Below, piece by piece: positions 7,111 through 33,127 of a stretch of 64,000 nucleotides of DNA (position 1 is its first letter; each line of letters begins with the position of its first letter). The notes under the pieces are model-generated. The model had not been told where the DNA came from and searched no databases. It was given only the letters and a program-made list of their open reading frames with translations. The position numbers and the translations under genes are program-made. Origin of the DNA: Tubulanus polymorphus (taxonomy: Eukaryota > Animalia > Nemertea); assembly GCF_964204645.1 (NCBI RefSeq), contig NC_134029.1, positions 14,874,950 through 14,938,949 on the forward strand, written 5' to 3'.

Positions 7111-9071
7111 GTAAATACTTAGTTATGGATCATCATGAGAGATCTGATGTGAGAACTAGCATTTGATTAGGGTGCAAAAACCCTTCCTTTTGATATTTCC
7201 CTTTATTTTGAACCTTCCATCTTCCACTTTGAATTACTGCTATATGCGACTAAATCAATGTATGAAGAATTTACCACATTCTTCATCATTAAGTCAATGT
7301 TAGTTCATTAGGGTTTCAGCTGATTTCGCAGCAACCTCTTGTAATTCTGTTGATTATTATTATTCCTTGTCCCCTTTCCAGCCAAAAATCTTTTATAAAA
7401 TCAAACTCCTCTCAGATTTGACTACTAACAGCTTGTAAATGTAATATTCAATTCGGACAGATATATAACCTCCCGTTCGGTTCCTGAACTTTGCTGAAAA
7501 AAATGAAATGCTGAAAAAAAAAACGCTGAAATTTGAGAGAATTCCCGAAAAACGCATTGATTTAGTCTCAACCTAAGTTTCGGTTATTGAATTGGTTATT
7601 GTTATTACTTTCGGGCCGGTGTCCGCTGCCGAGTCGTGAACCGTGCTTTAGTCTCGACCTAAGTTTCGGTTATTGAATGGGTTATGTAGATATATGGCTA
7701 CAAGGTCGTCGTCTTCGGCTCCGTTCAACATGTTCAACTTTTGATGGCGTCAGACCAGAATTAGGTAAGTAGCTCGAACATGCGTATGGCTGGGACCCCA
7801 AAAATAGTACCTAGAGTGAAGAAGAGGTCCCCCATAAATATCGCCATAATTCTGCAAATGGGATAGGTACCAAATTTCGGTTATATGTATGAAATCCATT
7901 GGGCCTGAGAGACAGATTGATGATGAAATAAGGGATTTCCCCGACTTTTTTGCTTGGACTAAGGGAACCCATCACAGTGGGGGATTCCCCTCGATATTCG
8001 GCTCGGATATACTGGCATCCCTGTACTGGGATACCTTTCCTTTCTAAGGTTTGGTTATTTCAAAAGTTAGGTTGGGTATGTGGGGCAAATACCACTGCAA
8101 AATGCGTAGCTAAGATGCTGCCCTATGAGCCCTAAGCAGGATTTCCCCTAAATTTACGTGCTTATATATATGAACTAAACTCTCGAATTTCTTGTTTTAA
8201 CTATAGGATATAGAAGATTTTGAGAATAGTGGTCTGAGCTCTGACTGATTCATGGATGACCTAATTTCCTTGACAAGAGTCAGAAACTTCAGTTGAAGTC
8301 TTCAGTCTGGAGGAACAATTTTTCAGGACACACTGTATAACATGATTCTTGCTAGCCGAAAACTAGGTCATCAAAACTACATCAGTTTATCAGTTCCCAA
8401 AACTACCATCATGCTTCCCTGAAATGGAAAATTAAATAGATAATATTTTTCTTCATTTATTTACATTTTATTTGTCTGTACATCATGATGTATAATGTTG
8501 TTATTGTTTTATGTGCATGTACCGTTATGAGCTAAAAATGAATTTATCACTTCGTTTGAATAAATTGTTAATCACACTATGGTCGCCCGAATCGATATTA
8601 CTAAACCATTAATTTTCTAAACTGACATCATTCTTTCTTTTATTGCCTTTTCTACAAAACATATATTATAAGGCACATTCACACTACAGATTTAACATTT
8701 AAGTTGAAGTACAAAGGATAGTACAAGCTAATATATATTTATTATGTATTATATAAGTTACTCACAGGGGTCAGTTTCATGAAAATATGCAGCTTATTTC
8801 TTGTATCGGGAACCATGATCCAAAGCCAAGTTATGAATGCCGGAATTCACAGAGGGACGTGTACGTGCCAAAAACATGCAACAAAATAATCTATAACTGA
8901 ACCGACGAAAATCAAATGAACTAGATTTGATTGAAAATAATCCATCTACATGTATAAACTCAACACACACCAATTCTTAATATTTTTTTTTCATGGTAAT
9001 TCCTTGCAACTTACCATTCCAACTTTTAATGCAAGTAGTAGTTGAATGAAAATACAGTAAGGCTGAACCTG

Positions 9072-9412
9072 AGTAATTAGAAGATGGCGTTTTCAGATCA
9101 GAGGTCGAGAGGTCGAGACACCACTCATCACAGCTAGGCTCTAGTGAGAACGGACGATTGCTCTGTGACACACATATACAGTGAGTGCGCGTAACAACAA
9201 CTGCGCGTGGATAGATCGATACAGTGAGTCTCTACTGAGAACGGTTATTAACGCGTGTGCTGTTACTGTAGTACAGTGATTGCGTGTCAACTGTGCCCAG
9301 ATAAATAGATGCTGTGAGGCTTGGGTGAGAACGGTTAATAGCGTGTTTGTTATATACAGGGGGAAGTAATCCCCACTCATCACCACAAGTAATTTTTTTT
9401 CCTTATAAATGG
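9072..9412 (+). repeat. Left terminal inverted repeat of Polinton
   Basis: Reverse complement of 25595-25935; about two mismatches seen by eye; ends just past the PolB ATG. Confidence 0.95.
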
Positions 9413-12400
9413 AAGAGAATAAGACAGAACAAATTGATGTTAATGAAAATCAATATCATTGTCCATATTGTAAAAAATACATTGATAAATCTCAAAAATC
9501 GCGTCATGAAAAGTCTTCAAATCATATAAAAAATGTAATAGATTTTGAAACTCCAGAAAATTCCAATGAAAGAAAAGAACGATTAGAAAATATGAATGTG
9601 GATGAAATAAAATGTGAAGTTTGTAATGAATTTATAGTAAAAAGGAATTATAATAGACATCTCGAATCACAAAAACACCATCAAAATTTAAGTAATAATG
9701 TTTTAGGAAAAGATTATTTCGATGATAAACCTCAAAAAGTAAAAAAACCAACTTCAAAAACTAAATCCATTTCAAATAAACCTTACATGGAAAATGTTAG
9801 AAATTATATTGATTCACTAGAAATAAAAGATACAATTGAAATTTTAGAAACATTACATAGTAAAATTGGTCCTGCGGCTATTATATTTAGATTCTTTAAA
9901 GGTACAACAATAGAAGATTATAGTAAATTTAATGAAATAATAGAAAAAATACTAGATTTGATAACAGATGTTGAATATCCAAAAATTAGTATCTCTGGGA
10001 AAGTAAGTTTTATAAAGTCAGAAGAAAAAATGAATTATAATATTCAAACACACTCTGAAGAAATAATTTCAAAAACACAAATAAAAGAGAAGTTAGAAAA
10101 AATATTTAATGGATTTAAACGTCATATTGAAGAAAGATATTTTGAGGGTTCTGGCTTAACATTGAATGAAATTATATATTTAGATTTAAATGTTTACAAT
10201 ACAAAAAGAAATAAAACATCAAAAAGTAAAACAATGTTTAAAAATGATTCAAACTTTACAACAAAAAAGGATATTAAAGCATCATCTTATATTAAATTAC
10301 CAATTACGACAAAAGCAGTAATAAATATTCAAAATGAAGATAATAAATGTTTTCTATGGTCAATTATTAGTTGCTTACATCCAACACAGGAAAATGTTTG
10401 TAGAATAACAGATTATCAGAAATATGAAACATTATATAAAATTGATCAATATCCAGTAACTATAAAAATGATACCCAAAATAGAAAAAATTAATAAGTTA
10501 AAAATAAATGTATTCGAATTAATGCAATTACCAAAGACTAAAGGTGAAAATATTAAAGATTATACATTGGAAGCTTTATATTTAACAGAATATTATGATG
10601 ATGAAAATGCTATAGATTTGTTATATTACAAAAAAGATGAAAATGAACATTATATGTGGTTAAAACAAATTGATTTATTCTTTAGAACAGAAAGTGATTT
10701 TAACAGCCATAAAATTTATCTATGTAGAAAATGTTTATCTAAATTTAGAACTGAGAATGCGTTACTAAAACAAAGAATTATGTGATAATAAAGATTTTTG
10801 TAAATTAATAATGCCAACAAAAAAAGATTGTAAGTTGAAATTTACTAATCATAAATTTAAGAATATTGTTCCATTTGTAATTTATGGGGATTTTGAATCA
10901 TTGAATAAAGAATTAACCGATCAAGATAGAAAAGAAATATATAATAAAAAGCAATTATTAAAATCAATGGATAAAGGAAGTGAATTAAATGAAGATATAA
11001 TTCAAGACCCACCAATTATAAATACAATTAAAAAAGTTCATCAAAGAGCTGCTGCTTATGGAATTTATATAAAATCAAATTATCCTGAATTATATGAAAG
11101 TCAATATATTTCTTTTAGAGGTGAAAATGTAGTTAATGATTTTTGTGACAAAATGATTGAATTAGAAAGTGATTTTGCAAAATTATTAAACAAAAATAAA
11201 AGAATAGTTATGACAAAAGAAGATGAAATTGATTTTAATTATGCAACTCATTGTTGTTATTGTGAAAAACGTTTTTATTCATTTGATAAAAAAGTTAGAG
11301 ATCATGATCATTTAAATTCAAAATATCGTGGAGCTGCTCATGAAGATTGCAATTTACAAGCTAAGAAAGTTAATTTCGTACCAATATTATTTCATAATTT
11401 ATCTGGATATGATACCCATCTATTTATAAAACAATTATCGGGAAAATTGGGTGCAATTAATCAAGAAATAGAAGAATATAATGCTATGAATGAAGCAAAT
11501 GTAAGAAAATATGATTTTAAACTATTAGCTAAAACATCTGAAAATTATATTTCATTTCTATTTGGTTGCATTAGATTTTTAGATTCTTATAGATTTCTAG
11601 CAAGTTCATTAGATAATTTATCAAAAAGTTTGGTTGAAAATGATTTTGTTATAACTCGATATTATTATCCAAATGAACAAGATTTTAAATTATTGAGATA
11701 TAAAGGCGCAATTCCTTATTCATTTTATAAAACACATGATGATTTTAATGTAACAGAATTATTAAAAGATCAATTTTATGATCAATTAAAAGAGGAGTAT
11801 GTGAAAGACGAAGTGTTTAATAGAACATTAAATATTTGGAACCATTTTAAGATGAAAAAATCATGGCGAATTAGTTGATTTATATTTAAAATCAGATGTT
11901 ATGATATTGGCTGACATATTTGAAAAATTTAGAGAAGTTAATTTGAATCATTTTAATGTTGATCCTTGTAATTGCTACTCTAGTCCTGGTTTAACCTGGC
12001 AATGTGGTTTAAAATATACAAATGTAGAATTAGATTTATTAAAAGAACCAGATATGGTTTTATTATTTGAAAAATCAATTAGAGGTGGAATTAGTGGTGT
12101 TATGGGAGATAGGTATTTTAAAGCAAATGATGAATATAAATTATTATATATTGACGCCAATAAGTTATATGGTTGGGCAATGATGCAACCTCAACCATAT
12201 AAAAATTTTATATTAACAGAAGTTGAAAATGGTGATAAAACTGATTGGGAAAGCGCAATTGCGAGTTTAAAAGATGAAGCACCAATTGGTTATTTCTTTG
12301 TAGTTGATTTAGAATATCCTGAAAATATAAAGTTTAAAACAAGAAACTTTCCTTATTGCCCAGAACATTTAACTGTAGATGATAGTTATTTAAGTGAATA

Positions 12401-14468
12401 CCAGAAGAAAATAAAACCGAAAGATCATGTTTTTACAGAAAAATTAATACTTACTCAAAATAATAAATACAATTATATCGTTCATTATAGAATGTTAAAA
12501 TTTTATCTAAAACAAGGAATGAAATTAAAGAAAGTACATAGATATATTGAATTTAATCAATCGAAGTGGTTAGAAAAATATATAGATTTCAATACTCAAC
12601 AGAGAACCATATCAAAAACAGATTTTGAAAAAGATTTCTTCAAATTAATGAATAATAGTTCTTATGGTAAAACATGTGAAAATATTAGAAATAGAAATGA
12701 TATTGAATTAGTCAATAATTCTGAAAGATTAAGACATTTACAATCAAGTCCTAGACATTTAGGAAATAAAAGATTTGAAGATTATTTAACAGCAGTTAAA
12801 TTAAAAAGAACATCAATGAAATTTAATAAACCTATATTTATTGGTTCGACTGTTTTAGAAGTATCAAAATTATTAATGTATGATTTTTATTATAATGTTT
12901 TACAACCACTTTTTGGGGAAAAGCATATTAAAATATTATATTTTGATTCTGTAACAGCTGACACCCCAATATTATTAAAATGTAATGATAAAATATTGAT
13001 AAGAAGAATTTCAGAAATAATTCCAAAACAAAATGAATGTTATATTTCATATGGAGAAAAAGAATTAATACAAATAAATGGTTTAATGGATGTTTGGACA
13101 AGAAATGGATGGAAAAAATTAAAGAATATTATTAGACATAAAACAAATAAAAAAATCTATAGAGTTAGAACTAAATTAGGATTTGTAGATGTTACAGAAG
13201 ATCATAGTTTAATTAAACGAAATGGCGATGAAATAAAACCAACTGATATAAAAATTGGAGAAGAATTATTGCATAAAAGATTTTTCCAAAGAATGAATCA
13301 TATGTCATTTGATGAAATTATTGATAATATTTATAATATAGAACCCGAAACATTAGAAGAAAAAGAATATTTTATCAAAGGATTTTTCATGGGTGATGGT
13401 TCAGCAGGTGTGTATAATTATGTTTGGGGTAATAAATATTGTTGGTATTTATGCAATCAAGACTTAAAATTATTAGAAAGAATTAAGAAATTCTGTGAAG
13501 AAGTTTATCCAAATAAAACATTTAGAATCATGGATGTTATGAAATCATCAGCAGTTAATAGAATACTTGTAAATAATCCTAAAGATTTTGCTATAAAATA
13601 TAATAATGAATTCTATATTCATGCAATAGTGAAAAGTAATACTTCAACAAAAGAAAAGATAGTTCCAGATTATGTATTAAATGCAAAAAATAATTTAAGA
13701 AAATGGTTCTTCATTGGATTCTATGCAGCAAATGGTGCTAAAAAATTTACAAAAGATAAAAAGATTACCTTTGCACAGAAAGGAAAAGTTGCTATATCAG
13801 GGTTAAATATATTATGTAATTCATTAGGCTTCAATATGAATATTGGATTGATTAAATCTAAACCAAATTGCTTTAATCTAAGCCACACAGAAAAAGATTT
13901 AACTGAAGAGGTTAAAGATTTATTTGAAATATATAACCCATCAGATTATGTTTATGATTTATCAACTGAAGATGGTACATTTAACTGTGGATTTCCATTA
14001 ATTTGCTTCAATACGGATGCGTATATACTAAAAATCAAGACAAATGATATAACAAAAGACTTAAAAACATTAAAACATCATTTTGATTTTAGCAATTATC
14101 CCAAAGATCATGAACTATTTAGCAATGATAATAAAAAGATTCCTGGTAAGTTTAAAGATGAATTAGGGGGTGATGAAATGATTGAATTTGTTGGGATAAG
14201 AAGTAAAATGTATAGTTACAGAACAAAAGATCATGAAGCTAAAAAGTTAAAAGGAATAACAAAACATGTGGTTGATAAACATATAGAATTTCAAGATTAT
14301 ATAAAGTGTTTATATAAATCAATTGTAATGAAACACAAAATGAATTGTTTAAGATCAGAAGATCACGAGATGTACATTAATGAAGTTGAAAAAACTAGTT
14401 TGAATCCATTTGATGATAAAAGGCATATTTTAGATGATGGTATAAAAACATTACCTTATGGCCATTAA
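9409..14468 (+). pseudogene. polB: Protein-primed family B DNA polymerase with N-terminal C2H2 fingers, EndoVII-like insertion and intein; two frameshifts (~10770, ~11858)
   Basis: Three consecutive ORFs join: INIQNEDNKCFLWSI, ExoI YGDFES, RDHDHLNSKYRGAAHEDCN, ExoII FHNLSGYD, ExoIII YLKSDV, motif A DANKLYGWAM, motif B KLMNNSSYGKT, motif C YFD|TDA, GKFKDE, SKMY, KLKG, C-terminal DDKR...TLPYGH. Confidence 0.95.
12948..14012 (+). mobile_element. Intein (355 aa) with LAGLIDADG homing endonuclease inside PolB motif C
   Basis: Block A SVTADTPILL, block B VDVTEDHSLI, LAGLIDADG-like FIKGFFMGDGS and FFIGFYAANGA, block F VYDLSTEDGTFNCG, block G LICFN followed by Thr; excision restores LYFDTDAYI. Confidence 0.93.
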
Positions 14469-15781
14469 AACATAAAATCAATATCATCATACTCGAAATC
14501 ACTATTGGCTTCTTCATTTTCATTTAATTGTTCAGGTTCTTCTTCCATTCCATTTTTCTCATTTAAATAAAGTTCTATCTTGTTCCACATTTCATCTCGC
14601 TCTCTTTGTTTCTTTTTGTTTGTTAATTCGTCAAATGGAATTATAATATCTAGGTTTAAATAATTTACAATCTTATTTAAAAAGAATTCATAATTTATTG
14701 AATCTGTTATTCTATTTTCCAAATGATACATTAATATTTGTTTGAATATTTTTTTTATATTTTCCATATCTTCTTCTGTTAATTTAGGTTTTTCATAATA
14801 ATCGTTAAATAATAAATATAAATACATTTTCTTTTCTTTTGTGTTAAATGTTGGCGGAATAATTGTTTTTATAATATCTTTTTTAGTTATTTCACCATTT
14901 TCATTTTCTATTATTTTCATTTTTTCAAGCCATTGCATATATTCTGGTGTATGATCTTCCATAGAAAATATTTTAAAAATTTCATCTAGATAATTCAATT
15001 TTGGATCTATGAGAAAATCTCTAGTTTTTTCTTCACCCAATAAATTCTTTTGCCATCCACATTCATTCCAAAATATCACAGGACCTTCTTGTCTTAAGTA
15101 CTCATAAATACATTGTGGGCATTTTTTTCTATCATAGCTTGGTGATAGATCTTCATTAAGCTCTTGGTATTTTCTTACGTTTTCTTTATGTTTTATTGTT
15201 CTATTATGTAGATTTGAATTACTTGTTGTAATAATCAATTTACAATATTTACAATAATATGTTTTTCTTGTTAATTCATTATATTGTTTTTCTAACTTTT
15301 CAACTGTTTCTTCATTATCTGGTAACGTTTTCTCATAATTTATTTTTTCTAATAAATTATTTTTTCTTTCATTAAATTCAGTTTCAAATTAATAATAAAT
15401 TTTATCTATATGTACTTCACGAAATTGATGATTCTCCGAATCTTCTATATTTTCAGGGCTATATTTTATTCGACAAGGCTCGCAGAAATGATCTTTTATC
15501 TAATCCTTATCATAGAATAAGAAAGGTCTTTTCCAAATAACTTCAGGTTCAACTTCAGCAGAATTACTATTACTTTCATTACTATCAACATTAGCCGTTG
15601 CGCCGTTAATTCTACACTTCTCTGAATGTTTTTTAACATAATTTCTTGAGAATAATTTATTACATTTTGGGCAGTTTATTTTAGGGGGTTTATAATTTTC
15701 ATCATGTTTTTTCATATGTCGTGCCATATTACTTTTTCTTAGAAGTTCACCACAAATTTCGCATGCTATCTTCTCATCCAT
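14465..15781 (-). pseudogene. Multi zinc-finger protein (~438 codons, two in-frame stops)
   Basis: ORFs 15500-15781 and 14465-15238 are in one frame; the gap reads IKDHFCEPCRIKY...YYCKYCKLIITTSNSNLHNRTIKH; N-terminal CEICGELLRKSNMARHMKKH and CPKC...H...C; acidic C-terminus. Confidence 0.7.
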
Positions 15782-15845
15782 TTATTTAGGAAAATTTTAT
15801 TAAAATTAATTTTTAGTGATGAGCGGTAATTTTTTTATGTTATAA

Positions 15846-16607
15846 ATAGTGGTAGAATTAAAAGAATACAGAATATTTGTTGATTCTAGAAAACTTACAA
15901 ATTATAAATCAGATAATTTACTAGTACAATTAGATAGAGAATTTAAGAATTGTGTAGATTTAAAATTAGTTAATATAAGTTTATGTAACTCATTTTACAA
16001 TATATCGGATAAAAGTCTAGAACATTTAATTTTTTCAATCTTTTACAATAAAAGGAATAAATGTTTTTTTATATATTTAAAACCAGGATTATATAATTTA
16101 GATACATTAACACAAGAAATTAATAGAAAAGCTCGAGCTAAATTAGGAAGTGATTCCGGATTTAGTATTAGAATTTTAAAAAGTGATAGTTCTAATAAAA
16201 TAAAGATTAGGTTAGCTAATGACGAACAATTTAAATTTACAGTAAGAAAACCTTTAGGTAAACTGTTAGGAATTAACCCAGATATTGTTACAGCATACGC
16301 AGAAGGTAGATCAAACTTAATACCTTTTACACATTTTTATATTTATTGCAATTTGATTGACCCAACAAAAACATTTGAAGCAACTAAAGATACAATTTGT
16401 AATTCTGGTTTATTAAATATTTTACCATTAAAAAATGTCAAACAATTTGGAACTCAAATAAATTATAATTTAACTGAATGTGATTTCAAACCTTGTATTC
16501 CACATTTCAATAATTTTAAATTAGAAATAAGAAATCATAATGGATATTTAATTGATTTGTATAACTTTCCTGTAATTTATGAATTAGTTATAAGATGTAA
16601 AGAGTAA
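15846..16607 (+). CDS. Putative minor capsid protein (penton); start codon appears mutated (ATA)
   Basis: IFVDSR N-terminus, PGLYN, YIYCNLID, C-terminal FKLEIRNHNGYLIDLYNFPVIYELVI pattern typical of Polinton single jelly-roll proteins; TAAATA where TAAATG is expected. Confidence 0.75.
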   Translation: MVVELKEYRIFVDSRKLTNYKSDNLLVQLDREFKNCVDLKLVNISLCNSFYNISDKSLEHLIFSIFYNKRNKCFFIYLKPGLYNLDTLTQEINRKARAKLGSDSGFSIRILKSDSSNKIKIRLANDEQFKFTVRKPLGKLLGINPDIVTAYAEGRSNLIPFTHFYIYCNLIDPTKTFEATKDTICNSGLLNILPLKNVKQFGTQINYNLTECDFKPCIPHFNNFKLEIRNHNGYLIDLYNFPVIYELVIRCKE

Positions 16608-16623
16608 TTTTTTCATTATATAA

Positions 16624-16980
16624 ATGAATATAACTGTTGGACCGAGTATATGTTTTGGGTTTGATTTTAAACGTGAGAAAGAAATGAAATTTAATATGAA
16701 TGATGTAATTACACATATCAAAAATATTGCATTTTCTAATGAAACAACATTTGAGTATGAAACAACAATAGATAAAGAAACTTTAAATGTAGAAAAGATT
16801 ACTAATTTAATTAGAGAATCTTTAAGATTTTATGAATTAGATGAAGATTTTATCATCGATGATATTAAAAAAGTAATAATTGAAATATATGATAATCATA
16901 AAACTAGTAATGAAATAAATGTTGAATTAATCATAAATAAGTTAACTAAATATTTTGAAGATAGTAATTTTTTTGATTAA
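16624..16980 (+). CDS. Polinton hypothetical protein, 118 aa
   Basis: Intact ORF preceded by the shared AATTTTTT...TAAATG motif. Confidence 0.7.
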   Translation: MNITVGPSICFGFDFKREKEMKFNMNDVITHIKNIAFSNETTFEYETTIDKETLNVEKITNLIRESLRFYELDEDFIIDDIKKVIIEIYDNHKTSNEINVELIINKLTKYFEDSNFFD

Positions 16981-16983
16981 TAA

Positions 16984-17181
16984 ATTAGTGATAATAAGTG
17001 GATAATAACTGGATTATATAATGGAGCATTACTATCAGTTGGAACTGTTGGTTATTCAATGGTATTAAAAAAAGTATTCAAAATGGGAAGTGTTAATGTT
17101 GATAGATTAACATTAGCAGTTACTTTATCTAATTTAACTATTGATTATTTAGAAACACAGAAATATATTCCTCCCATATAA
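16984..17181 (+). pseudogene. Small hydrophobic Polinton protein (65 codons, start mutated to ATT)
   Basis: Open frame (M)SDNKWIITGLYNGALLSVGTVGYSMVLKKVFKMG...IDYLETQKYIPPI* directly after motif AGTAATTTTTTTGATTAATAAATT; absent from ORF track. Confidence 0.65.
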
Positions 17182-17205
17182 ATACATAATTTTTTTGCTA
17201 AATAA

Positions 17206-17628
17206 ATGGCTTCTGCAATTATAACTATTATAGGATCTGCAATTGTTAACGCTTTGGCATTTACTGGTGGTGGTTATTTATTTAAACATATTGATAAAAA
17301 TAGTTCATTAGGAGAACAAAGAAGACATAACTTAGCGTTAGAGAAATATAATAAAGCTGCAGAAGAATATAGAGAAAAGAGGCAAAACTATATGGATTAC
17401 ATCAATAAAGAATTATATGATCAGAAGATTTCACATAGAGATTTTCAATCAGTTGATGATGCAATGAGTTTATATAACGCGGTAACCAATAAAGAAAAAT
17501 TACATCTATACAAACCTAAATTATCAGATTATTATACCCCGAGTAAAGAACAACAGAAATATGAAATAATATGGATTTTAGGTGGAACTTTTATTGTTAT
17601 ATTTGTAGCATATAAATTTACTAATTAG
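17206..17628 (+). CDS. Polinton membrane-associated protein, 140 aa
   Basis: Hydrophobic Gly/Ala-rich N-terminus (GSAIVNALAFTGGGYLF), helical middle, C-terminal TM segment. Confidence 0.75.
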   Translation: MASAIITIIGSAIVNALAFTGGGYLFKHIDKNSSLGEQRRHNLALEKYNKAAEEYREKRQNYMDYINKELYDQKISHRDFQSVDDAMSLYNAVTNKEKLHLYKPKLSDYYTPSKEQQKYEIIWILGGTFIVIFVAYKFTN

Positions 17629-17648
17629 TAATTTTTTTTGCTAAATAA

Positions 17649-18083
17649 ATGGAAGATAAAGTTGATAGTATTGATATTATTCCTCATGATATAAATAAAA
17701 CTAAATTAAAAACATATTTAGAAAAAGAAATATTAGAATTTGAAAGTGACTTAAAAGTTAAAAAGAAAAAATATCTAAAAAGTAAAATTATATATTATTT
17801 GATTATAAGTGGTTCGGTTACAATTAGTTCTGTAATAACATTTCTAGCAATATTCAGTCCATTAACACCTTTAGCTATATCAATTGGTGTGTTAGGATTA
17901 AGTTCAAGTGTTTTAACCGGTATAAGTTCAAAATTAAATATAAAAAGTAATAAAGAAAAAATTAAAACTAATATAAAAGAAATTAATAAATTAAAGAACA
18001 CACTAGATTATATAATAAGTTTAAATGGCCATATAACAGTTGAAGAACAAGATAAATTATTAAAAGAATTAATAAATTATTAA
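17649..18083 (+). CDS. Polinton two-TM protein, 144 aa
   Basis: Central hydrophobic hairpin flanked by Lys-rich helices; motif-preceded ATG. Confidence 0.72.
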   Translation: MEDKVDSIDIIPHDINKTKLKTYLEKEILEFESDLKVKKKKYLKSKIIYYLIISGSVTISSVITFLAIFSPLTPLAISIGVLGLSSSVLTGISSKLNIKSNKEKIKTNIKEINKLKNTLDYIISLNGHITVEEQDKLLKELINY

Positions 18084-18099
18084 TTTTTTAATTATATAA

Positions 18100-19503
18100 A
18101 TGGTAGATAGTTTTCCAAAAGCTTTCCAATATAATAAATCAATTAAATATAATATTCCAGCAATAGATTTTAATAAAGATATTACATATAGAAATGAAGT
18201 TTTAGATTCATTAACTAATTTAGAAATTTATGTTACTGAAACTAACAATTTTAATGCAAAGATGGAAAATATATTTCATGTTTATTTAATTGATTTTAAA
18301 AAATTGAAAGATGAAAAACAATGGTTATTAAAATCTAATATGAGGTATTGGCAGAACCAATTAAATTTTGCTGTTTATTGTGCAACAACAGGTTGTGGAA
18401 TTAGTTGGAATGATCATTTGAATAATTCTAAATATAAATTAATTCAAAGTTTATTTAGATTTCATACATACTTTCAAATCAGAATAATATTAAATGAATT
18501 AGAGTGCGCTTTACCAGGATCAAGATATTTTAAAGAATTAGATAATAATATTAATTTATCTAAGTTTTATAAAATTTGCAATGAATTTAATATAGATATA
18601 AATAATTCTGATTTTAGAACAAAAATTGGAACAATAAGATCACTTCCTTGCCCTAAAAAGGTTGCAGAATATTGTGCACTTCCCATACCATCTAATAGTT
18701 TTTATAATATCTATAATAATAAATTAGGTTATGGTAAAATAGAAACTAAGGATTTAGAAACATTAAATTTCAATAAATTACCGAAATCTTATGATAATTT
18801 AAAACAATAATGGTTGGGTTTATTTTATTTTAGAAAATAGTGAAGGTTTTACTAAATCAGGTATAGAAAGAATAAATCAATCTATTAGAACTTATTTGAT
18901 TTGTATTCTAGGATCACAAGTTGAAACAAGATCACCGATAATTGGAAATTTGAATACATCATTCGATACACAAAAACAATTTAAAGTATTATTTGAAGAT
19001 TCCATACATAATGATAAAAATAGATCGATTCCAGAAAACATATAGATATCAAAATTATTTAGATAAATCACATATTAGATTAAATTATTGTATAGGCCCT
19101 AATCTATTAATTATTTCTAATGATTTAGTATTAAAGATGGGAAATATAATTGGTTATAATAATCTAATTAAAACTGCGACAATAAATAATTCATTTGGAT
19201 TAAATGATATAAATAAAAAGATTATAACTGCTCCAAAATTAATGGAAGGTGAAAAAAATAAAAAACATTCAATCAACAGAAACTAAAACTAAGAATATTA
19301 AATTGGATAATGATTCCAAAATAAAAAATTACAATACTGCAGAAAATGGTGCCGTCCGGCACCCACACGGTGATATTAAAACTGATAATATTCAACATGA
19401 TATAATTAAAACTGATAATGACAATAAATTACATGAAAATACTAAATTAGCTTTAACTTGTATAGGAATTGTTATAGGAGGAATATTATATTTTAAATTT
19501 TAA
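18100..19503 (+). pseudogene. Polinton protein of unknown function, frameshifted, C-terminal TM
   Basis: WQNQLNFAVYCATTGCG and LFRFHTYFQIRIILNEL continue via an alternate frame (GWVYFILENSEGFTKSGIERINQSIRTY...) into ORFs 18993 and 19249; only one start motif. Confidence 0.7.
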
Positions 19504-19522
19504 TTTTTTTATTATATAAATG
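19501..19522 (+). promoter_or_regulatory. Representative Polinton gene-start motif TAATTTTTTT-Nx-ATAAATG
   Basis: TAAAT(G) at every inferred gene start; a T-tract 8-20 nt upstream in most. Confidence 0.7.
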
Positions 19523-20974
19523 GATGTAGAAGGTGGAGAAGATATTGGAATGGATCCTTTTGATGAACCTGGTATAACTGATGAACAACCACCTGATTTT
19601 GATGAAACAACTTTTAATGATGGTAATGAGCCAGAATATAATAATAATTTAAATATGCCTGATTATATTAGAAATGCAGAATCACAATTAAATCCTGAAA
19701 ATTTAGACCCAGGTTTAGTAAAACAAGATTTAGATAATTTAAACAAAATAGCTAAATTAGAAGATATAATTAAAAAATCTAAACTTAACATAAATGATGA
19801 AGACGTTGGACCTTTAGTAGATAAATTAAGATTTTTAGATAATGGTAAATGTTATTATCATTTGAAAGGTGATTATTATATTGATATCACTTATAAACGT
19901 GAAAAGAAAATATTATCAGAATCAACTTTAGAAAAATTAGAACCAGATAGAATTAAAAGAATAAGTAATAGTAATGAAATAACTGATGTTACACAAAAAG
20001 AAAGAGATGATAATATAGACGTATTTAAACAAAGAATTAATGAATTATTTGAAATAATCAAAAAGAAATCAGAAACAGAAACAACTTCTGAACAGAATAT
20101 AACTTCCAAAAATAGTAAACTTAAATCAAATAAAGTTCCAATTGAAAAACTTTTACCGAATGGATTAATTGATGCAACAGATCAAGAATTAGAAGATTTA
20201 GATATATTTTCTGATAAAGCAATTAGAGAAATTATTAGTATAAGACTTGCATCTAATAAAATTGCGCATGATAAAAGTATAAGAGATTTTAAAATTAGAA
20301 CTTTAGAAAAAGAATTAACTGATAAAAATAAAGAAATAGAACAATTAAAGTCTGATTTAGATCATCAAGTAATTGATGAAATAGAATATAGGCAAAAAGA
20401 ATTACGTTTAGAAAAAGAAAAAGATGATTTAGAATATAACATAGAATTACAAAAAGAAGAAATTAAATTATTATTAAAATCATATGATTATAATATTAAT
20501 AGATTAAAAGTTATTTTTAAAGATTTGTTGATGAAACCAGATTCTGAAATATCATTGAAAGATAGAATAAAATTGTTATTTAAATTAGAAGGAATAACAA
20601 TTCTTTCAATTCTAACAGCTGTAACTATGTTATTTACAACAATTGGTTTAGCAATATCAAATGCTTTGAAATCTACACCTACTCTCAATAAACCGGATAA
20701 ACCCCCGAATGATAATAATTCTATACAAGATAAAGTTAAAGATGGTTTTAAGAAATTAGCAAAATATTTATGGGAACTATCTAAAAAATCTGCTGCAGCT
20801 TTACCTGGAGTTATTGCATCAATTGTTGGTTTTATATTGAAATCTGCTGGGAATATTCTTAACTTTGCTGCTGAACATATTATTTTATTTTTAATCACAG
20901 TTGTAAGTGCTATTATTTTTTGGTTAGTAAATATGATATCAAAAAGATATCAAGAAAAAAATAATAAAGAATAA
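19520..20974 (+). CDS. Polinton coiled-coil membrane protein, 484 aa
   Basis: Acidic N-terminus, long coiled coil, then 2-3 hydrophobic segments near the C-terminus. Confidence 0.8.
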   Translation: MDVEGGEDIGMDPFDEPGITDEQPPDFDETTFNDGNEPEYNNNLNMPDYIRNAESQLNPENLDPGLVKQDLDNLNKIAKLEDIIKKSKLNINDEDVGPLVDKLRFLDNGKCYYHLKGDYYIDITYKREKKILSESTLEKLEPDRIKRISNSNEITDVTQKERDDNIDVFKQRINELFEIIKKKSETETTSEQNITSKNSKLKSNKVPIEKLLPNGLIDATDQELEDLDIFSDKAIREIISIRLASNKIAHDKSIRDFKIRTLEKELTDKNKEIEQLKSDLDHQVIDEIEYRQKELRLEKEKDDLEYNIELQKEEIKLLLKSYDYNINRLKVIFKDLLMKPDSEISLKDRIKLLFKLEGITILSILTAVTMLFTTIGLAISNALKSTPTLNKPDKPPNDNNSIQDKVKDGFKKLAKYLWELSKKSAAALPGVIASIVGFILKSAGNILNFAAEHIILFLITVVSAIIFWLVNMISKRYQEKNNKE

Positions 20975-20998
20975 ATAATTAATTTTTTTGTTTAATAA

Positions 20999-22252
20999 AT
21001 GAGTGGGAGTTATATAAGTCCTTCTAAGATTTCTAGAATATCTAATGCTATTAAAGCAGAAAGATCACATCGTATAATTACTCATAACCCTTCAAATATT
21101 AATCTGAAATATTAATATGAAACTTTATATGTTAGAATTCCTAGATTAACACAAAATACTTTTTATGTTCCAAATAGTATTTATTTATCAGCCGATATAA
21201 AAGTAACTGGCCATGATAACAATTATGTTGTTGATAATGTTGGAAGATATTTGATTAAAAAATTAACTATAAAGATTGGTCCGGAAACAGTTTTCTCATT
21301 AGATGATTATAATTTATTTATGCATTATAAAGATTTATGGTTAACTAAAGAAAATAGAAATAATATGATATTTCAAGGCATCCAATCGGAAAACCATAAT
21401 AAATTAAGATCAGGAGCTAATGACGCAATAGTAACTCGTGCCACAGATAATTTGATTAAAAAGATTTATGGAAGCAAATATAAAATTCCATTAGATTTTG
21501 AATTGATAAATAATAATGCACCTTTATATAAATACGCAATTCAAGAAGATATTATATTTGAGATAACATTTGCTCCTGTAAATGAAATTGTATTATCTAG
21601 CGTTGTTAAAGATATGAGTTATAAATTATCGAATATATGTTTAGAATATGATACAGTAACTGATGAAAATATTTCAAGTATAATTCAAACTCAATACAAT
21701 CAAGGATTTTCATTATTATATGATTATATTGATAAATTTAAAACTGTAACTATTATTGCAATGATGAAATAATTAATGAGAATATTAACTTCCCAAGAAG
21801 ATCTATTAAAGGTATATTAATATTTTTTACTATTGCAACATTCTAATGGTGCAATAAAGGTAGATAATTATTATAATCCTGAAATAACAAAAGTAGAAAT
21901 AACTATCGAAGGAATAGCAAATAAAATATTTTGCCAAGGAATGAGAATGATAGATCAGTGGCCAGAAATTAGAAAACATTTTATGAATGAAAAAGTAAAA
22001 TCATTTGAAAATTGTAATATTAATCAAATTGATTATTATACCGGCAATAAATATGCATTATGGTTAGATTTTAGAACAACAGAGGATAATTCATTACATG
22101 GTTCTGGAAAAAAACTACAGAACACTAAAGATGGAATACAATTATTCATGAAAAAGAAAAAAGGAAGCTTAAATTTTAAAATGCATATTTATATTATATC
22201 TGACGCGCAATTAAATATTGTAAATTCACAATTAGATAGTATTCAATATTAG
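20999..22252 (+). pseudogene. Major capsid protein (double jelly-roll, hexon-like), disrupted
   Basis: MSGSYISP...ITHNPSNI, LYVRIPRL, NVGRYLIKKLTIKI, NICLEYD, NINFPRRSIKGILI, YNPEITKVEITIEG, YALWLDFRT, DAQLNI; stop at 21113 inside a 13-bp duplication, plus frameshifts ~21760 and ~21833. Family assignment from recalled Polinton MCP pattern, size and position. Confidence 0.8.
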
Positions 22253-22282
22253 AAATATAAAGTTAAAATTAAGGATATATAA

Positions 22283-23410
22283 ATGGGTGGTAAAAAAACT
22301 CCTAATACTAAAGAACAATATTTAAGAAATTTATATTACAACCCTGAGAGTTCGGTTGCTTATTCTTCTACTTAAAATATATGGCGTAAAGTAAAACAAG
22401 ATAAATTAGATAAGATAATCCCACAAAATTTAGTTAAATATAAAGATATAAATGAATTTATGTTAGAACAACCAACATATACAACACATAAAAAAATTGT
22501 TAGAAAATATAAAACTCGTAAAACTATGGTAAGTTATGTAGATCAACAGTGGCAAGGAGATTTAATTGATATGAAAAATGTTAAGAAAGATAATGATGAT
22601 TATTGGTGGTTATTGAATATAATTGATATTTTTAGTCGTTTTGTATGGAGCTTCCCACTTTATAGAAAAGATGCTGTACAAACATCAAATGTTTTAAGAA
22701 AATTTCTTTCGGATGATAAACTAAAACCAGAAAAAATACAATTTGATGATGGAAAAGAGTTTGATGATTCACTTGTTCATGAACTCTTAGATAATCATAA
22801 TATTGAATATTTTTCAACAAAATCGGATAAAAAAGCAGCAGTTGTTGAACGATTTAATAGAACATTAAGAACAAGAATGTGGAAATATTTTACAGCAAAT
22901 AATACTTTAAAATGGATTGATGTTTTACCAAAATTGATAGAAGGATATAATAATTCTTATCATTCTTCTATTGGAATGAAACCTATTGATGCTAGAAAAC
23001 CTGAAAATGCTGAAATTGTTTGGAATAATTTATATGGAGCATTTCTTGTAGATGATTTTGGTGAACCTAAATTTAAAGTTGGTCAAAATGTTAGAATTTC
23101 TAAGTATAAAAAGATATTTGATAAAGGATACGATCGAAATTTTACTAGAGAAATATATAAAATAAAAAAGGTAATAACAACAAAACCATATGTCTATAAA
23201 TTAGAAGATTTAGATGGTGAAGAAGTTGATGGCTACTTTTACGAAGAAGAATTGAGTTTAACTACCGAAAATCTAGAACAAGAATATAAAATTGAAAAAG
23301 TATTAAAAACAAAAACTATTAAATAAAAAAAATATTCTTTAGTAAAATGGGTTGGATGGCCAGATAAATTCAATGAATGGATATTGTCAAGTAAAATTAA
23401 AAATATATAA
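22283..23410 (+). pseudogene. Retroviral-like (rve) integrase with C-terminal chromodomain; stops at 22373 and 23324
   Basis: QWQGDLID, IDIFSRF, QFDDGKEF, VVERFNRTL DDE core; read-through gives YKIEKVLK...YSLVKWVGWPDKFNEWI. Confidence 0.92.
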
Positions 23411-24019
23411 ATGAATAAGGAATTATTTATATTTGAACCTCATAATATGTTAATTTCTGGTGTATCAAATTGTGGAAAAACTTATTTTATGTTAAATTTA
23501 TTAGAAACTGTTTATGAAAACTATTTTGATAATATAGTATTATTTTGCCCAACATATGAATTTAATCAAACTTATGATAGAAATATTACTAGGAATAATA
23601 AATTTATTATATTAGATCCTAAAACAGTAAAAGAAAACTTAGATAATTGTATTAAAATAGCAATTGATATTTATAAAGGATCAAATACATTATTCATTAT
23701 AGATGATTGCGCAAATTTACATGATTCAAAAGTTAGAGAAAGTGAGTTATGTTATTTAGCTTTCTCCGGGAGACATTTCGGGATAACAACTTGGGTTTTA
23801 AATCAAAAATATAATTCAATTGTTAAAGACTTTAGAGAAAACATTAGATTTCTAGTTTTATTCTACAATAAAGATAGAAAATCGATGAAAAATGCACTTG
23901 AGGAAAATGATATTATTCCACATGATTTACATAATGAATATATGGATAAGTTGAAAAATATTAAAAGATCAAAATTACTATTTAGATTACAACACCCATT
24001 TAAATATGAATTTATTTAG
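23411..24019 (+). CDS. A32/FtsK-like genome packaging ATPase
   Basis: Walker A GVSNCGKT, Walker B FIIDD, GRH motif, downstream Q and REN. Confidence 0.9.
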   Translation: MNKELFIFEPHNMLISGVSNCGKTYFMLNLLETVYENYFDNIVLFCPTYEFNQTYDRNITRNNKFIILDPKTVKENLDNCIKIAIDIYKGSNTLFIIDDCANLHDSKVRESELCYLAFSGRHFGITTWVLNQKYNSIVKDFRENIRFLVLFYNKDRKSMKNALEENDIIPHDLHNEYMDKLKNIKRSKLLFRLQHPFKYEFI

Positions 24020-24184
24020 ATTCAATTAGTTTGTTAATCTAGTTGAATTCTAGTTATTGGTAGTTGTAACAAAAATCAAATAGATTTAACAATATTTTAA
24101 CTAGCTTGTTAATCTAGTTGAATTCTAGTTACATTCTAGTTGAATTCTAGTTGCAACATCACAACTAATTTTTTTGTTATATAA

Positions 24185-24790
24185 ATGGTAGGTGAAAAGA
24201 AAATAAAATCTAAAAATGGTGATGTTCCAATTGATAAAACTTTAGATGATTTAGGAATAACAGAAAACAAATTAACTCCAGATAATTGTGCTTTAAATAA
24301 TGTTACAACAAATAATAATTATGAATATTATCTTTATTGCAAACATCAATTAGAAATATTAATAGCATCTGGAAAATGTAAAAAATTTGTCGATAAAAAT
24401 TTAACTTATAATGAATTAGATACAATGAAATCAGTTGAAATTATTAGATTATTTAAGATTTATGAAGCCGCGAGAACAGCTAAAATTAAAGACGCGATAT
24501 CAGAAAATGTAGTAAAAGGTTATAGTAAATTATGTAATTATATACTACCAATTGAAGATGAAAATAGATTATATTCCGATTTAAAAAATTATTATTTAGT
24601 TATGACTGAATTAAATAAATGGATTGGATATTTATCGTTTCAATTAGGAGGATTTATGACATTATTATCAACTGGGGTTATAACATTTTCAAATATTGAA
24701 AGTAAAAATATTTCTATAATAAATGAGCGAGGTGAAAGAAGTGAAGGAATTAACTGTGAAGAAAAAACCGAGAACTCAGAAACAAATTGA
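24185..24790 (+). CDS. Polinton hypothetical protein, 201 aa
   Basis: Intact ORF with start motif; hydrophobic stretch near C-terminus. Confidence 0.72.
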   Translation: MVGEKKIKSKNGDVPIDKTLDDLGITENKLTPDNCALNNVTTNNNYEYYLYCKHQLEILIASGKCKKFVDKNLTYNELDTMKSVEIIRLFKIYEAARTAKIKDAISENVVKGYSKLCNYILPIEDENRLYSDLKNYYLVMTELNKWIGYLSFQLGGFMTLLSTGVITFSNIESKNISIINERGERSEGINCEEKTENSETN

Positions 24791-25091
24791 ATGGTCTCGG
24801 CAATTAGGAATTAAATCACAAGAATATAAAAAAGCTGAAAAAGAAAAAATAAATAATAAAAATGTTAATAAAAATGGTGAAAATATTGTTATTTCTACTC
24901 CTTCTGATAATATAATATTTGATAAATATTTATATTTTACAGTTGGATTTGTAATTGTATTCATTTTGATTGGGTGTAATTGGTATAAGAAATCAAATAA
25001 AATTCATGATATTAATAATTCTGAAACAACTGCTATCAAAAGTGAAAATAATTCTGAAATTCCAAAATTGATAATAAAAAAAATGGATTAA
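24723..25091 (+). CDS. Polinton basic single-TM protein, 122 aa
   Basis: TAAATG start, basic KKKPRTQKQ N-terminus, TM YLYFTVGFVIVFILIG. Confidence 0.7.
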   Translation: MSEVKEVKELTVKKKPRTQKQIEWSRQLGIKSQEYKKAEKEKINNKNVNKNGENIVISTPSDNIIFDKYLYFTVGFVIVFILIGCNWYKKSNKIHDINNSETTAIKSENNSEIPKLIIKKMD

Positions 25092-25272
25092 TATTTTAGA
25101 AAAAAAGCAAAAAAAAATAATTTTTTTAAATTAATTGAATATCTCACTACTTTTGTCTATCACTGTGTGGGTGCCGTTTATGGCACCATCTATGCGGAGC
25201 AATTAAATTGTCCAGATAAGTCATTTCGGATTCTAGATATTCATTATTTTTATTAATTTATTTTTTTTAAAT

Positions 25273-25598
25273 TTAATCAACAATTTCTAAATCATGATGG
25301 CCATCTTCATTTTTTCCATGATATATTATTTTAAATCCTTTTAAATCTTTTAATTCCTCTGTACTCAATGAAACCCATTTATCAGGTAAAAATACTTTAA
25401 ATTCTCGCGATGTACTAACATTACATTCGCTTAAATTAGCTGATACTTTCTCTCCATATTTAGTTTTTATCTTTTCTAATTTCAATATTTTATGTTCAAT
25501 TTCTTTTGTAACATCAACTAACTTTTTTATTTCAAATTGTTTTTTGCTGGTTTAATTCTGTTATTTATTGTTGCTAAGAATGCTTTTCTATCTCCCAT
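25273..25598 (-). pseudogene. Small protein started from the right TIR, one frameshift; possible OB-fold ssDNA-binding protein
   Basis: ATG at 25598 (minus) MGDRKAFLATINNRIKPAK; a one-base shift in an A-run joins ...KIKTKYGEKV...KVFLPDKW...KIIYHG. SSB role is inference. Confidence 0.55.
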
Positions 25599-25935
25599 TT
25601 ATAAGGAAAACAAATTACTTGTGGTGATGAGTGGGGATTACTTCCCCCTGTATATAACAAACATGCTATTAACCGTTCTCACCCAAGCCTCACAGCATCT
25701 ATTTATCTGGGCACAGTTGACACGCAATCACTGTACTACAGTAACAGCACACGCGTTAATAACCGTTCTCAGTAGAGACTCACTGTATCGATCTATCCAC
25801 GCGCAGTTGTTGTTACGCGCACTCACTGTATATGTGTGTCACAGAGCAATCGTCCGTTCTCACTAGAGCCTAGCTGTGATGAGTGGTGTCTCGACCTCTC
25901 GACCTCTGATCTGAAAACGCCATCTTCTAATTACT
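25595..25935 (-). repeat. Right terminal inverted repeat of Polinton
   Basis: Ends ...CATCTTCTAATTACT, followed by TSD AACCTG. Confidence 0.95.
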
Positions 25936-26365
25936 AACCTGATAACCCAAATTAAGTGCTAGCATCGAACTTATGATTATTTTGATTTGGTTTTCGGTGT
26001 CATTGAAATTCGTAAATAAAGGTTCAACCGTCGTAGTATACTGTACTTAGCATAGCTCTGATTGGGTGTCATATTTCTACAAGACAAGGAGGAGTGTGAA
26101 AGGGTCTTCCCCGGGTAGGGCTTAAACCTGGTTTACTTTCTATCTTAATTTGCTGGAGACAAGGTGAGTTAATATGCAGAATACCTTGCACCAAGGGTCG
26201 GTTCCTTAGCAGTTTTAAATTCCTTGTTTCGTGATGGGAACGTCGGTGGGAATCTTTACATTTGAAAGGTTGGCAGATAATGTCCTTGAAAGCCTTTAAT
26301 TGGTTTATCTTTGTCAGCAGTATGAGGTTGGCATTGAGCCAATTCATGTAAAATCGCAGTACATT

Positions 26366-27653
26366 TTTAGCCCACTTGTGACTTTAGTCCCAGCGGGCTA
26401 TTGCGTTCACTTTTCGTCCGTCCGTTCGTCCGTCCGTCCGTCCGTCCGTCCGTCCGTCCGTAGACGGAATCCAGTTATTTTGGGAAGTTTTGAAGACGCT
26501 TCAAGGTAATGTCTTGATATTTGGGTTACACATGTATCTACCCTAGACACATCTTCAGCCCAAAAACTGGCCCTGTCAGAATCAAGATGGCCGACTGGCA
26601 GCCATTGTTGATCGTCAAAATCATCACTTTTTACACATTTTTGAACTTTTTGAAGGAAATTTTGAAGACGCTTTGATCAATTACCTTGATCTTTCGGATA
26701 TATGTGAATCCCCCCAGGGCCCATCAACATAACAAAAATTGGGTCGGTCGGACTCAAGATGGCCGTCCTATGACCTTTTTAGTGCCCAAAAATGTTAATT
26801 TTGGCCCAAATTCTGAGTCCTGTAGCTTCCTACTGGTTTGCCATTTCTCATTACAATTTGTGATGGGTATTCTTTGGAAAGGGATGTTTTATACCTGAGA
26901 CAGGTATTTTTCATCAGCCAATTATGACGCAATTGGCGGCCATCTTGGTGTCACCAGTACTCATTCGTAAGTGGGAAAAAGTTTTTCCACATTATATTGA
27001 TACCTAAGCGTATTTTGCTACCACAATCAATTAGAAAGTTGTAGCTCATAACGTGTTCTATGATTGTGGTGAGTTTCAAGGTAATTGGATTTCGTATATG
27101 GCCACCAGGGGGCGTTGAGTAATACAATATCTTAGCATTTCTTTATTATATTCGTACCTATGCATATTTTGTAACCACAATCAATTGGAAAGTTGTAGCT
27201 CATGACATCATCTATGATTGTTGCGAGTTTTAAGGACATCAGTTTTTCTATATGGTCACCAGGGGGCGTTGAATAGTAGAATAACTTAGTATTTCCTTAT
27301 TATATTGGTACCTAGGCACATTTTGTTACCATGATCAATTGCAAAGTTGTAGTTCATGACATGTTCTATGACTGTGGTGAGTTTCGAGGTCATTGGGTTT
27401 TGAATATGGTCACCAGGGGGCATTGAATGTTAGAATGACTTAGTATTTCCAAATTAAATTGGTAACGAGGCATATTTTGTTATCACAATCAATTACAAAA
27501 TCGTAGCTGTTGACATGTTCTATGATTGTGGTGAGTTTCAAGGTCATTGGTTTCTGTAAATGGTCACCAGGGGGCATTGAATGTTGAAATTGTTAGATTG
27601 TTCAGCATTTTAAACCACTTCCCAAGTGGTCATGGTGTCCCTGGACCCCTAGT
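26366..27653 (+). mobile_element. Helentron-associated/DINE-1-like non-autonomous element
   Basis: Inserted in a T-run; subterminal IR CCCACTTG/CAAGTGG, (GTCC)n microsatellite, four ~154-bp tandem units, 3' hairpin GTCCCTGGAC then CTAGTT; second copy at 34018-35044. Confidence 0.72.
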
Positions 27654-27664
27654 TTATGTGAGCA

Positions 27665-32000: not shown

Positions 32001-33127
32001 CACCGAATGGAATGAAAATCGCTGCTGCAATCGATTGGACGCCCATTGATTATTTCAACAATTTGTTTCCAAATGGAGCCTTTGATCCCTTAGTTACTGA
32101 AACTAATCGGTATGCAGAACAGTTTCTGGACTCTCCTATTGAACTACCAGCATCTTCCAGGTACCATCATTGGGAGAACATTGATGTGAATGACATATCT
32201 ATATGGCGATGACATTAGCTATGGAGATATGCCATAAACCCAGAATTGAAGACTATTTTTGTGGTTTTTGGCTAACTGCTAAACCCAATATGTCATATTT
32301 CATGAGTAGGAATAAATTCCAGTTGATTTCATCCTTTCTTCACTTCAGACATGACGCAGAAAGGATACCAAACGGTCAGCCGGGATATGATCCATTGTAC
32401 TAAGTGAAATATATTAGATAGATATATAAAGATATTAGATATTTGTGTTCCTTGGTATAAAGCACTTAATACTACAACCCTGACCTGGCCGTTGATTAAA
32501 GTATGGGCAAATTCAAGGGGAGATTATATTTTAGGCAGTATATGCCATAAAAACAAATTTGGTGTAAAGCGTTGGTGCTTATGCGATGCTAATGGGTATT
32601 GCCTGGACTGGTATACATATACTGGCAAATCTGGTGACGAGGCAGGTCCAGGGTTGTGGAATAAAGTTGTAGAAAGGCTTACAGCCCCTTATTATAACAT
32701 GGATCATCATGTATATATGCAGATGATTTCTTTAAATGTCACCATCAATAATGATTAAATTGAAGCAAAATGACACAGGCCTGTGTGGAACTGTGAAGCC
32801 CAATAGGATTGGTCTTCCATCTGCTATGCCAACGGCAAACCTTGCTCGACCCGATCCTCTTTTGAATGCTGATGGTGGCATGTCAGCTGTGACATGGATG
32901 GATGTAAAAAAAGTAAATGCAATTACCTCTATCCATGGAAACAATGTGAAAAATATTCAATTAGAGATAAAGACCAGCCCACAGGGAGGTACGGAAACCT
33001 GGACTGATCTGCGATTACGGTGCGTACATGGGTGGGGTTGATCGAGACGATCAACTCCTATCGTTCTATGATCACAACCGCCTCTCTAAAAATGGTACAT
33101 GAGAATCTGCTTGACTGCTGTGGTTAA

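Follow-up and report, generated by a model that had tools for sequence, protein, structure and literature searches.

The window (the whole stretch of DNA that was analysed, 64,000 nucleotides) contains an integrated Polinton/Maverick element, in which the gene for a protein-primed PolB (pPolB) is interrupted in frame by a predicted intein. The features of this element are as follows, with + and - for the strand.

9066..9071, +, left target-site duplication AACCTG, 6 bp, a perfect match to the right copy
9072..25935, no strand assigned, whole Polinton/Maverick, 16,864 bp, with inverted repeats and target duplication
9072..9416, +, left terminal inverted repeat, 345 nt, starting with AGT
9409..10785, +, pPolB piece 1, N-terminal zinc fingers and the following domain, ending at a frameshift
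10769..11878, +, pPolB piece 2, exonuclease with an endonuclease-VII-like insert, ending at a frameshift
11856..12947, +, pPolB N-extein, with motif A, motif B and the opening half of motif C (YFD)
12948..14012, +, predicted intein, 355 aa, Hint splicing domain with an inserted two-helix LAGLIDADG endonuclease, from motifs, profile matches and a model
14013..14468, +, pPolB C-extein, starting with Thr+1 (TDAY) and holding the RSKMY motif
15846..16607, +, probable minor capsid protein, from a weak DUF5901 match only
20999..22252, +, probable major capsid protein, in pieces, with a weak Capsid_N match (E 0.003)
22283..23326, +, rve integrase (retroviral-type), above the Pfam cut-off, frame broken near its start
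23411..24019, +, A32-type packaging ATPase, above the Pfam cut-off
25591..25935, -, right terminal inverted repeat, 3 mismatches in 345 nt
25936..25941, +, right target-site duplication AACCTG, 6 bp, a perfect match to the left copy

Inverted repeats, a 6-bp duplication, a protein-primed PolB, an rve integrase and an A32 ATPase together identify the element as a Polinton/Maverick. Its GC content is about 23%, against about 37% in the flanks. An adenain-type protease had no Pfam match among the 19 proteins scanned, with several ORFs still unassigned. Nothing was found by Rfam over 9000-26000, ARAGORN found no tRNA, and two small ORFs yielded nothing when compared. Just after the polymerase, on the opposite strand, lie two zinc-finger ORFs (14465-15781, -), the larger of which has a U1-type finger above the Pfam cut-off, like the N-terminal fingers of the polymerase.

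The element also shows a recurrent form of gene start. Thirteen ATGs that open genes or first pieces (element, 9390-25617) read TAAATG, and an ATG directly follows the stop in 10/27 stop-to-stop ORFs of at least 80 aa, compared with 62/2491 short ones and 1/52 in the host flank. The longer form TAATTTTTT-N3-9-TAAATG occurs eight times in the element and not once in 38 kb of flank. We take this motif to resemble poxvirus late promoters. It fits a dependence of the element on a nucleocytovirus without naming the donor; a rival reading is tight gene packing in AT-rich DNA. The motif is present in both inverted repeats, so that each end of the element starts an inward-facing gene. In the viral contig L130, which carries a related empty pPolB (one lacking the intein), an ATG stands right after a stop in 6/14 long ORFs, and in L129 in 0/21. 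Polinton-like hyperparasites of entomopoxviruses are known (PMC11296320, accessible part).

Upstream of the intein the pPolB is broken by two frameshifts, near 10770 and near 11850. The three pieces of the polymerase follow its intact relative P0157 end to end in an alignment; introns were ruled out as the cause of the breaks, as the pieces track this relative residue to residue. The reading frames of capsid and integrase are disrupted as well, and the element is therefore either a recent insertion that is already decaying or in part an assembly with indel errors. The Pfam profile PF03175 had no match in the window's pPolB pieces and weak matches in their relatives, and an OTU-like domain at the PolB N-terminus, a trait of beta adintoviruses, had no Pfam match. 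In the Atlas the extein falls with PF03175 clusters at 0.93-0.95, and the extein search and tree likewise group it with protein-primed PolBs, as an earlier note on this DNA had anticipated.

Within the ORF at 11856-14468, positions 12948-14012 (+) are translated as 355 aa without a stop, from SVTADTP to LICFN, in frame between KILYFD and TDAYILK. The nearest empty polymerases (P0156-P0159, 71-85% identity) read YFDTDSY at this site, so the boundaries of the intein are exact. The earlier note had described motif C as split by an uninterrupted 355-aa insert, and this description holds. YxD/TD, where the slash marks the point of insertion, is the pol-c intein site of archaeal and giant-virus RNA-primed PolBs. 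Like class 1 inteins, the insert stands in frame at a conserved site for which precise empty alleles exist, and its position at YxD/TD of PolB motif C together with its kinship to pol-c inteins marks it as a pol-c allele.

All the splicing blocks that had been named from the sequence (A, B with TEDH, F and G) were recovered. The block A nucleophile Ser1, T83 and H86 of block B, the block F Asp (D337) and the C-terminal Asn355, which is followed by Thr+1 of the extein, are each kept in 98/98 other aligned inteins. The penultimate residue is Phe, not His; Phe occurs there in 0/11 pPolB relatives, and His in 7/11 pPolB inteins and 26/77 RNA-primed PolB inteins. A penultimate His is usual in class 1 inteins and not obligatory, and some inteins splice with Phe in this place. 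Profile searches for the Hint and LAGLIDADG domains were divided: TIGR01445 (intein N-terminal region) scored 30.9 bits on the intein, above its cut-off of 24.5, and Pfam Intein_splicing (28.9 versus 35.8) and LAGLIDADG_3 (20.2 versus 22.5) fell below theirs.

An AlphaFold model of the intein from a 38-row alignment had a pLDDT of 86.5 and a pTM of 0.89; single-sequence folding gave a pLDDT of 34, and that model was set aside. The top PDB matches of the model are all inteins, the endonuclease-bearing TliVMA, PI-PkoII, PhoVMA, PI-PfuI and PI-SceI (E 3e-18 to 2e-10), followed by I-DmoI and mini-inteins. Among viral models (BFVD) the best matches are polymerases of a phycodnavirus, Pandoravirus, Marseillevirus, Megavirus and Heterosigma akashiwo virus. 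To judge from its site, motifs, modelled fold and kinship, the insert is a canonical pol-c intein, and splicing is predicted. An identity as a Hedgehog or bacterial intein-like Hint domain was ruled out by the presence of both exteins and the nuclease.

The two LAGLIDADG-like helices proposed earlier are both present in the model, at intein residues 136-150 and 248-262, in an I-DmoI-like fold that also matches I-DmoI. The first helix carries its acidic catalytic residue; the second has lost it in the window copy. Both acidic residues are kept in 11/11 other pPolB inteins, and the loss looks private to the window copy because 158/164 reads over this place differ from the window. The residues suggest that cutting by this copy's endonuclease has likely been lost or halved.

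The intein is far from alone. Among the 120 long homologues listed, ten are pPolBs (P0002-P0007, P0010-P0012, P0071), with 41-63% identity over the intein, and these include the best by single-alignment identity. Ten others are type II topoisomerases, in which the intein occupies DQD/TDG-type sites, and most of the rest are RNA-primed PolBs with 28-41% identity. The extein search added four intein-bearing pPolBs among the 120 listed (P0174, P0247, P0257, P0272), and a search of the whole library added P0409 (72%, with extein) and the bare fragment P0430 among the 150 listed. The same intein is thereby found in at least 15 pPolB clusters besides the window.

Eight of the 107 extracted inteins were dropped before tree building (wrong starts, short or duplicate). 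In the resulting 99-row tree the pPolB inteins form one clade of 12 rows (SH-aLRT 100). A second tree of 59 rows, made of 54 hand-picked rows of the 99 and five archaeal pol-c inteins on which it was rooted, again gives a single clade (10 rows, 100/100), and a single origin of the inteins in pPolBs is well supported by these trees. This clade is sister (100/90) to eight RNA-primed PolB inteins, most of which share the block G signature, and the two together are nested within two further starred groups (100/98, 99/95). The sister group includes a giant-virus MAG polymerase (P0022, corresponding to L002 at 99.8%), other pol-delta-like polymerases and T4-like phage polymerases. Both the trees and the model matches thus place the intein with pol-c inteins of RNA-primed PolBs, mostly from giant viruses, as the earlier note had foreseen. 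The GC3 of the intein (0.14) equals that of the element, which fits long residence. Recent capture in the window copy was ruled out by GC3 and the depth of the clade.

Several members of the wider family stand in other settings. The topoisomerase inteins (P0087, P0091, P0105, P0106, P0108, P0109, P0112, P0116, P0118, P0120) lie in a non-homologous host protein with which the D/TD junction is shared, and 9/10 of them fall in one clade. The inteins of three T4/RB69-like phage polymerases (P0015, P0016, P0017) are nested among giant-virus pol-c inteins, beside the Polinton clade. A pol-c intein of the same family is also found in P0095, named as the DNA polymerase delta catalytic subunit of Chloropicon primus, a cellular nuclear polymerase.

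Intein-bearing (plus) and empty alleles occur side by side, as the earlier note had suggested they might. The raw reads come from organism A, which may be the window's species or a close relative (only 324/5775 aligned reads are at least 99% identical). In run X6, about 12% of which was read, the summed depth is 142-261 on the intein and about 270-550 on the exteins. The intein is skipped by 40 reads, whose match to the window breaks off at 12947-12951 and resumes in the C-extein at 14025-14061. No such joint was found among the matches listed for three contig runs. Plus and empty sister copies coexist in organism A in roughly similar numbers. The 22 read differences listed inside the intein, from the best 40 of 344 places, fall on third (13), first (8) and second (1) codon positions, which may be taken as a modest sign of purifying selection on the intein.

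The same polymorphism is seen among relatives. The plus allele P0139 and the empty P0142 are the same in their flanks and differ by the intein. The P0003 cluster has 15 members listed, of which seven bear the intein, five are empty and three are partial, and its plus alleles mostly share 94-100% identity with the empty ones. Between P0003 and its five empty mates there are 22-64 differences, 13-19 of which lie between residues -10 and +50 around the site, an interval that makes up 5% of the length; this interval was picked after viewing the alignment and the sequences are non-independent, so the statistics are descriptive. In the P0003 lineage YMD precedes the site in 8/8 plus alleles, and a Cys at -5 is present in 6/8 plus alleles compared with 4/96 empty ones. 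A motif C survey of this lineage (P0173-P0274; 107 proteins, seven without a readable site) found the 96 empties to read YMD/CDSF (38), YMD/TDSF (29), YID/TDAF (13) and rarer forms including TDG. The YMD/CDSF empties have Cys in place of the usual Thr of motif C. TDA follows the intein in the window and in P0409, and TDS stands in their empty kin. Such patterns would be expected from co-conversion of flanks and equally from empty alleles that escape, two processes that are inseparable at the protein level.

An extein tree of 52 rows (15 plus, and 37 empty ones picked by hand) has plus and empty rows intermixed, with 11 changes of intein state, at least eight of them forced by starred branches; this is not far from shuffled labels, for which the mean is 13 changes, and 57/500 shuffles give as few as 11. 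The exteins of P0006 are 23-33% like those of the window and its intein is 49% alike, and its PF03175 match is stronger, which points to a jump of the intein between deep polymerase lineages. In pPolBs of the window's type, inteins and exteins diverge in step (identities 61/63, 50/52, 82/86). This last pattern, the long stem of the pPolB intein clade (0.45) and the damaged endonuclease of the window copy would all suit one ancient gain followed by inheritance and repeated precise loss, without homing today. We consider such a history unlikely, as it needs at least eight precise losses on the 52-row tree and as inheritance alone does not explain P0006, the site-clustered differences between near-identical alleles or the distribution of the -5 Cys; in addition, the endonuclease residues are kept in all 11 relatives. 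Homing among sister copies is, on the allele patterns, the likely process.

The host of the element was approached through the DNA around it. The flanks contain satellites and decayed elements. Two decayed Gypsy-type LTR retrotransposons lie at 53380-54772 (-) and 57463-62814 (-), the second with direct repeats at about 56000-56240 and 63140-63380. By eye, fragments at 31493-33041 (+) resemble a piggyBac-type transposase, and a GIY-YIG-like ORF at 38682-39080 (-) is probably the end of a Penelope-type element. Arrays of a 154-bp repeat at 1-650, 26957-27654 and 34585-35045 lie inside a larger dispersed repeat that is present three times.

For the Gypsy reverse transcriptase at 53879-54772, 19 of the 120 relatives listed carry organism names. 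All 19 are animals (14 echinoderms and five molluscs, 40-46% identity), and the host is therefore taken, very likely, to be a marine invertebrate. For the earlier proposal that the intein may have entered an animal germline via the Polinton, the pointer to an animal is this neighbouring retrotransposon, not a host gene. A real intein in a non-animal host, or in co-assembled symbiont or protist sequence, seems very unlikely to us. It would agree with a window in which no host gene was identified, with the distance of the Gypsy relatives, 101/120 of which are listed without an organism name, and with the possible occurrence of this polymerase type in protists too (10.1101/2023.08.22.554363, accessible part). 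It sits poorly with the perfect 6-bp duplication and both inverted repeats, which tie the element to repeat-rich DNA of 37% GC, with the uniformly echinoderm or mollusc names, and with the nearest Atlas clusters of the extein, which are 73-94% eukaryotic with Arthropoda as the commonest phylum. The intein-bearing relative P0010 is filed in the genome bin of a clam symbiont and is likely clam DNA.

The trees favour a transfer from RNA-primed PolB to pPolB. In the AU test, made on the 59-row set, a tree with the pPolB inteins as sister to all RNA-primed PolB and topoisomerase inteins was not rejected (p 0.158), so the direction is not proven, and the sister group also includes T4-like phage polymerases (P0015, P0017), which bears on the type of donor. 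Scans of viral and metagenome contigs by an insensitive pattern method (37 loci, 80 out of 130 and 80 out of 513) found no intein above 41% over the full length. Of three viral contigs with related exteins, two have an empty site and one is unreadable there, and annotated phages gave one weak record. The site DNA of the window and of nine giant-virus loci matches at 9-13/18 bases, a figure compatible with rare cross-homing and largely forced by the shared amino acids. It is hardly credible that the intein was born in pPolBs or passed through them to giant viruses, or that it came from a T4-like phage and not a nucleocytovirus, for all that the AU result and the phage polymerases in the sister group would allow it, since in the best tree the pPolB clade is enclosed by three starred groups with RNA-primed PolB inteins, which are far more diverse (77 of 99 rows), and since eukaryotic cells are shared by Polintons and nucleocytoviruses, not by phages (established knowledge; PMC11296320, accessible part). 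A giant virus is thus the likely donor on the tree. The suggestion in the earlier note of a jump into a pPolB during co-infection with a large DNA virus agrees with the pol-c clade, and its timing has to be changed: the jump would be an old one that founded the clade, not an event of this copy, and the mixed sister group and the AU result bear on the donor it named.

Taken together, we interpret the insert as a canonical pol-c intein that likely made one old jump from the RNA-primed PolB of a large DNA virus into a Polinton pPolB and has likely spread by homing since, including among copies integrated in animal genomes; we put the probability of this reading at about 0.78. The jump into the YxD/TD site would have taken place once, long ago, likely in a cell co-infected with a nucleocytovirus. 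The polymerase would first be a precursor, and with Ser1, the Thr and His of block B, the Asp of block F, the C-terminal Asn and Thr+1 the 355 residues would be removed by splicing and the catalytic YFD-TD motif restored; the residues are observed, and the chemistry is predicted from them. The LAGLIDADG domain would have as its target the DNA of motif C in sister elements that lack the intein; with an intein-bearing copy as the template for mending the cut, the intein would be carried over together with part of its flanks, as the allele patterns suggest. The arena for homing may be replicating Polinton genomes or the many integrated copies. The window copy would be a recent insertion that has since decayed.

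A bolder version of this reading is possible, and we hold it tentatively, with the odds somewhat against it. It takes the inteins to be active homing elements of animal Polintons, derived from the giant viruses which those Polintons parasitise, that drive through dozens to hundreds of germline copies, have jumped between two deep polymerase lineages and have pushed the catalytic motif to the escape variants CDS, TDA and TDG. If true, animal genomes would house protein splicing and a homing drive that both occur naturally.

To our knowledge, canonical inteins are essentially absent from animal cellular genes. A 2018 survey reported inteins to be absent from animal genomes, and this rule would be broken for endogenous viral DNA, not for animal cellular genes. 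A full-text search of the literature found no Hint-domain intein in a Polinton; Repbase, InBase, subscription papers and supplements were outside its scope, and large supplementary pPolB tables may hold some. The closest statement is one sentence, in the accessible part of PMC11161782, that homing endonuclease inserts of polinton pPolBs may 'result from intein invasions'. A study of nematode pPolBs describes HNH and VSR domains only in its accessible text, where 'intein' and 'hint' have 0 occurrences (10.1101/2023.08.22.554363). The word 'intein' does not appear in the main texts of PMC8502044, PMC11296320 and 10.64898/2026.10.13.758929, and scores 0 in the accessible parts of PMC8097293, PMC11131425 and PMC13215967. 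Viral-type DNA polymerase inteins have been reported, in the accessible part of PMC10710043, on nuclear scaffolds of Klebsormidium, Tetrabaena and Hondaea; its main text is without the words 'polinton', 'maverick', 'protein-primed', 'animal' and 'metazoa'. Nothing closer was found in what is accessible of PMC12220804, PMC3671162, PMC13768754, PMC4104785, PMC5718144 and PMC7765530. The clade of inteins in Polinton protein-primed polymerases is apparently undescribed.

The family extends the known hosts of inteins by protein-primed polymerases, and the intein would have crossed between polymerase classes at a short shared motif. Homing requires that two genomes meet in the same cell, so the intein would document at the molecular level that animal Polintons and large DNA viruses have been in contact, a point of relevance to the question of whether animal Polintons are virophage-like. 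Since plus and empty alleles are found within one species, homing and escape can also be tested directly.

Compared with known systems, the element resembles Polintons/Mavericks and Beta-type adintoviruses (PMC8502044, accessible part) in its inverted repeats, its target duplication of 6 bp, and its genes for a pPolB, an rve integrase and an A32 ATPase, probably also in its weakly matched capsid genes and in a polymerase that looks divergent from PF03175, and differs from them in its intein and in having no protease match (Pfam, 19 proteins). The HNH and VSR inserts of Polinton pPolBs, as far as the accessible text describes them, are likewise nuclease domains in a polymerase, and the window's pPolB has an endonuclease-VII-like insert as well; its intein, by contrast, is a complete Hint plus LAGLIDADG unit within the catalytic motif, with empty alleles. 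The animal Hedgehog Hint shares the Hint fold and the animal genome, but it neither joins two exteins by splicing nor contains a homing endonuclease (PMC5784728 and PMC7765530, accessible parts), whereas the insert described here has both exteins and a nuclease. The Klebsormidium, Tetrabaena and Hondaea inteins have also reached a eukaryotic nuclear genome within an endogenous viral polymerase gene, although these cases, as given in the accessible part of PMC10710043, concern viral-like polymerases in algae and a labyrinthulomycete. The pol-c inteins of nucleocytoviruses and archaea are alike in site (YxD/TD of motif C), in blocks and in Hint and LAGLIDADG domains, at 28-41% identity; what sets the window's intein apart is its host protein, a protein-primed polymerase encoded by an element that integrates, and the place of its gene in the chromosome of a cell, very likely of an animal.
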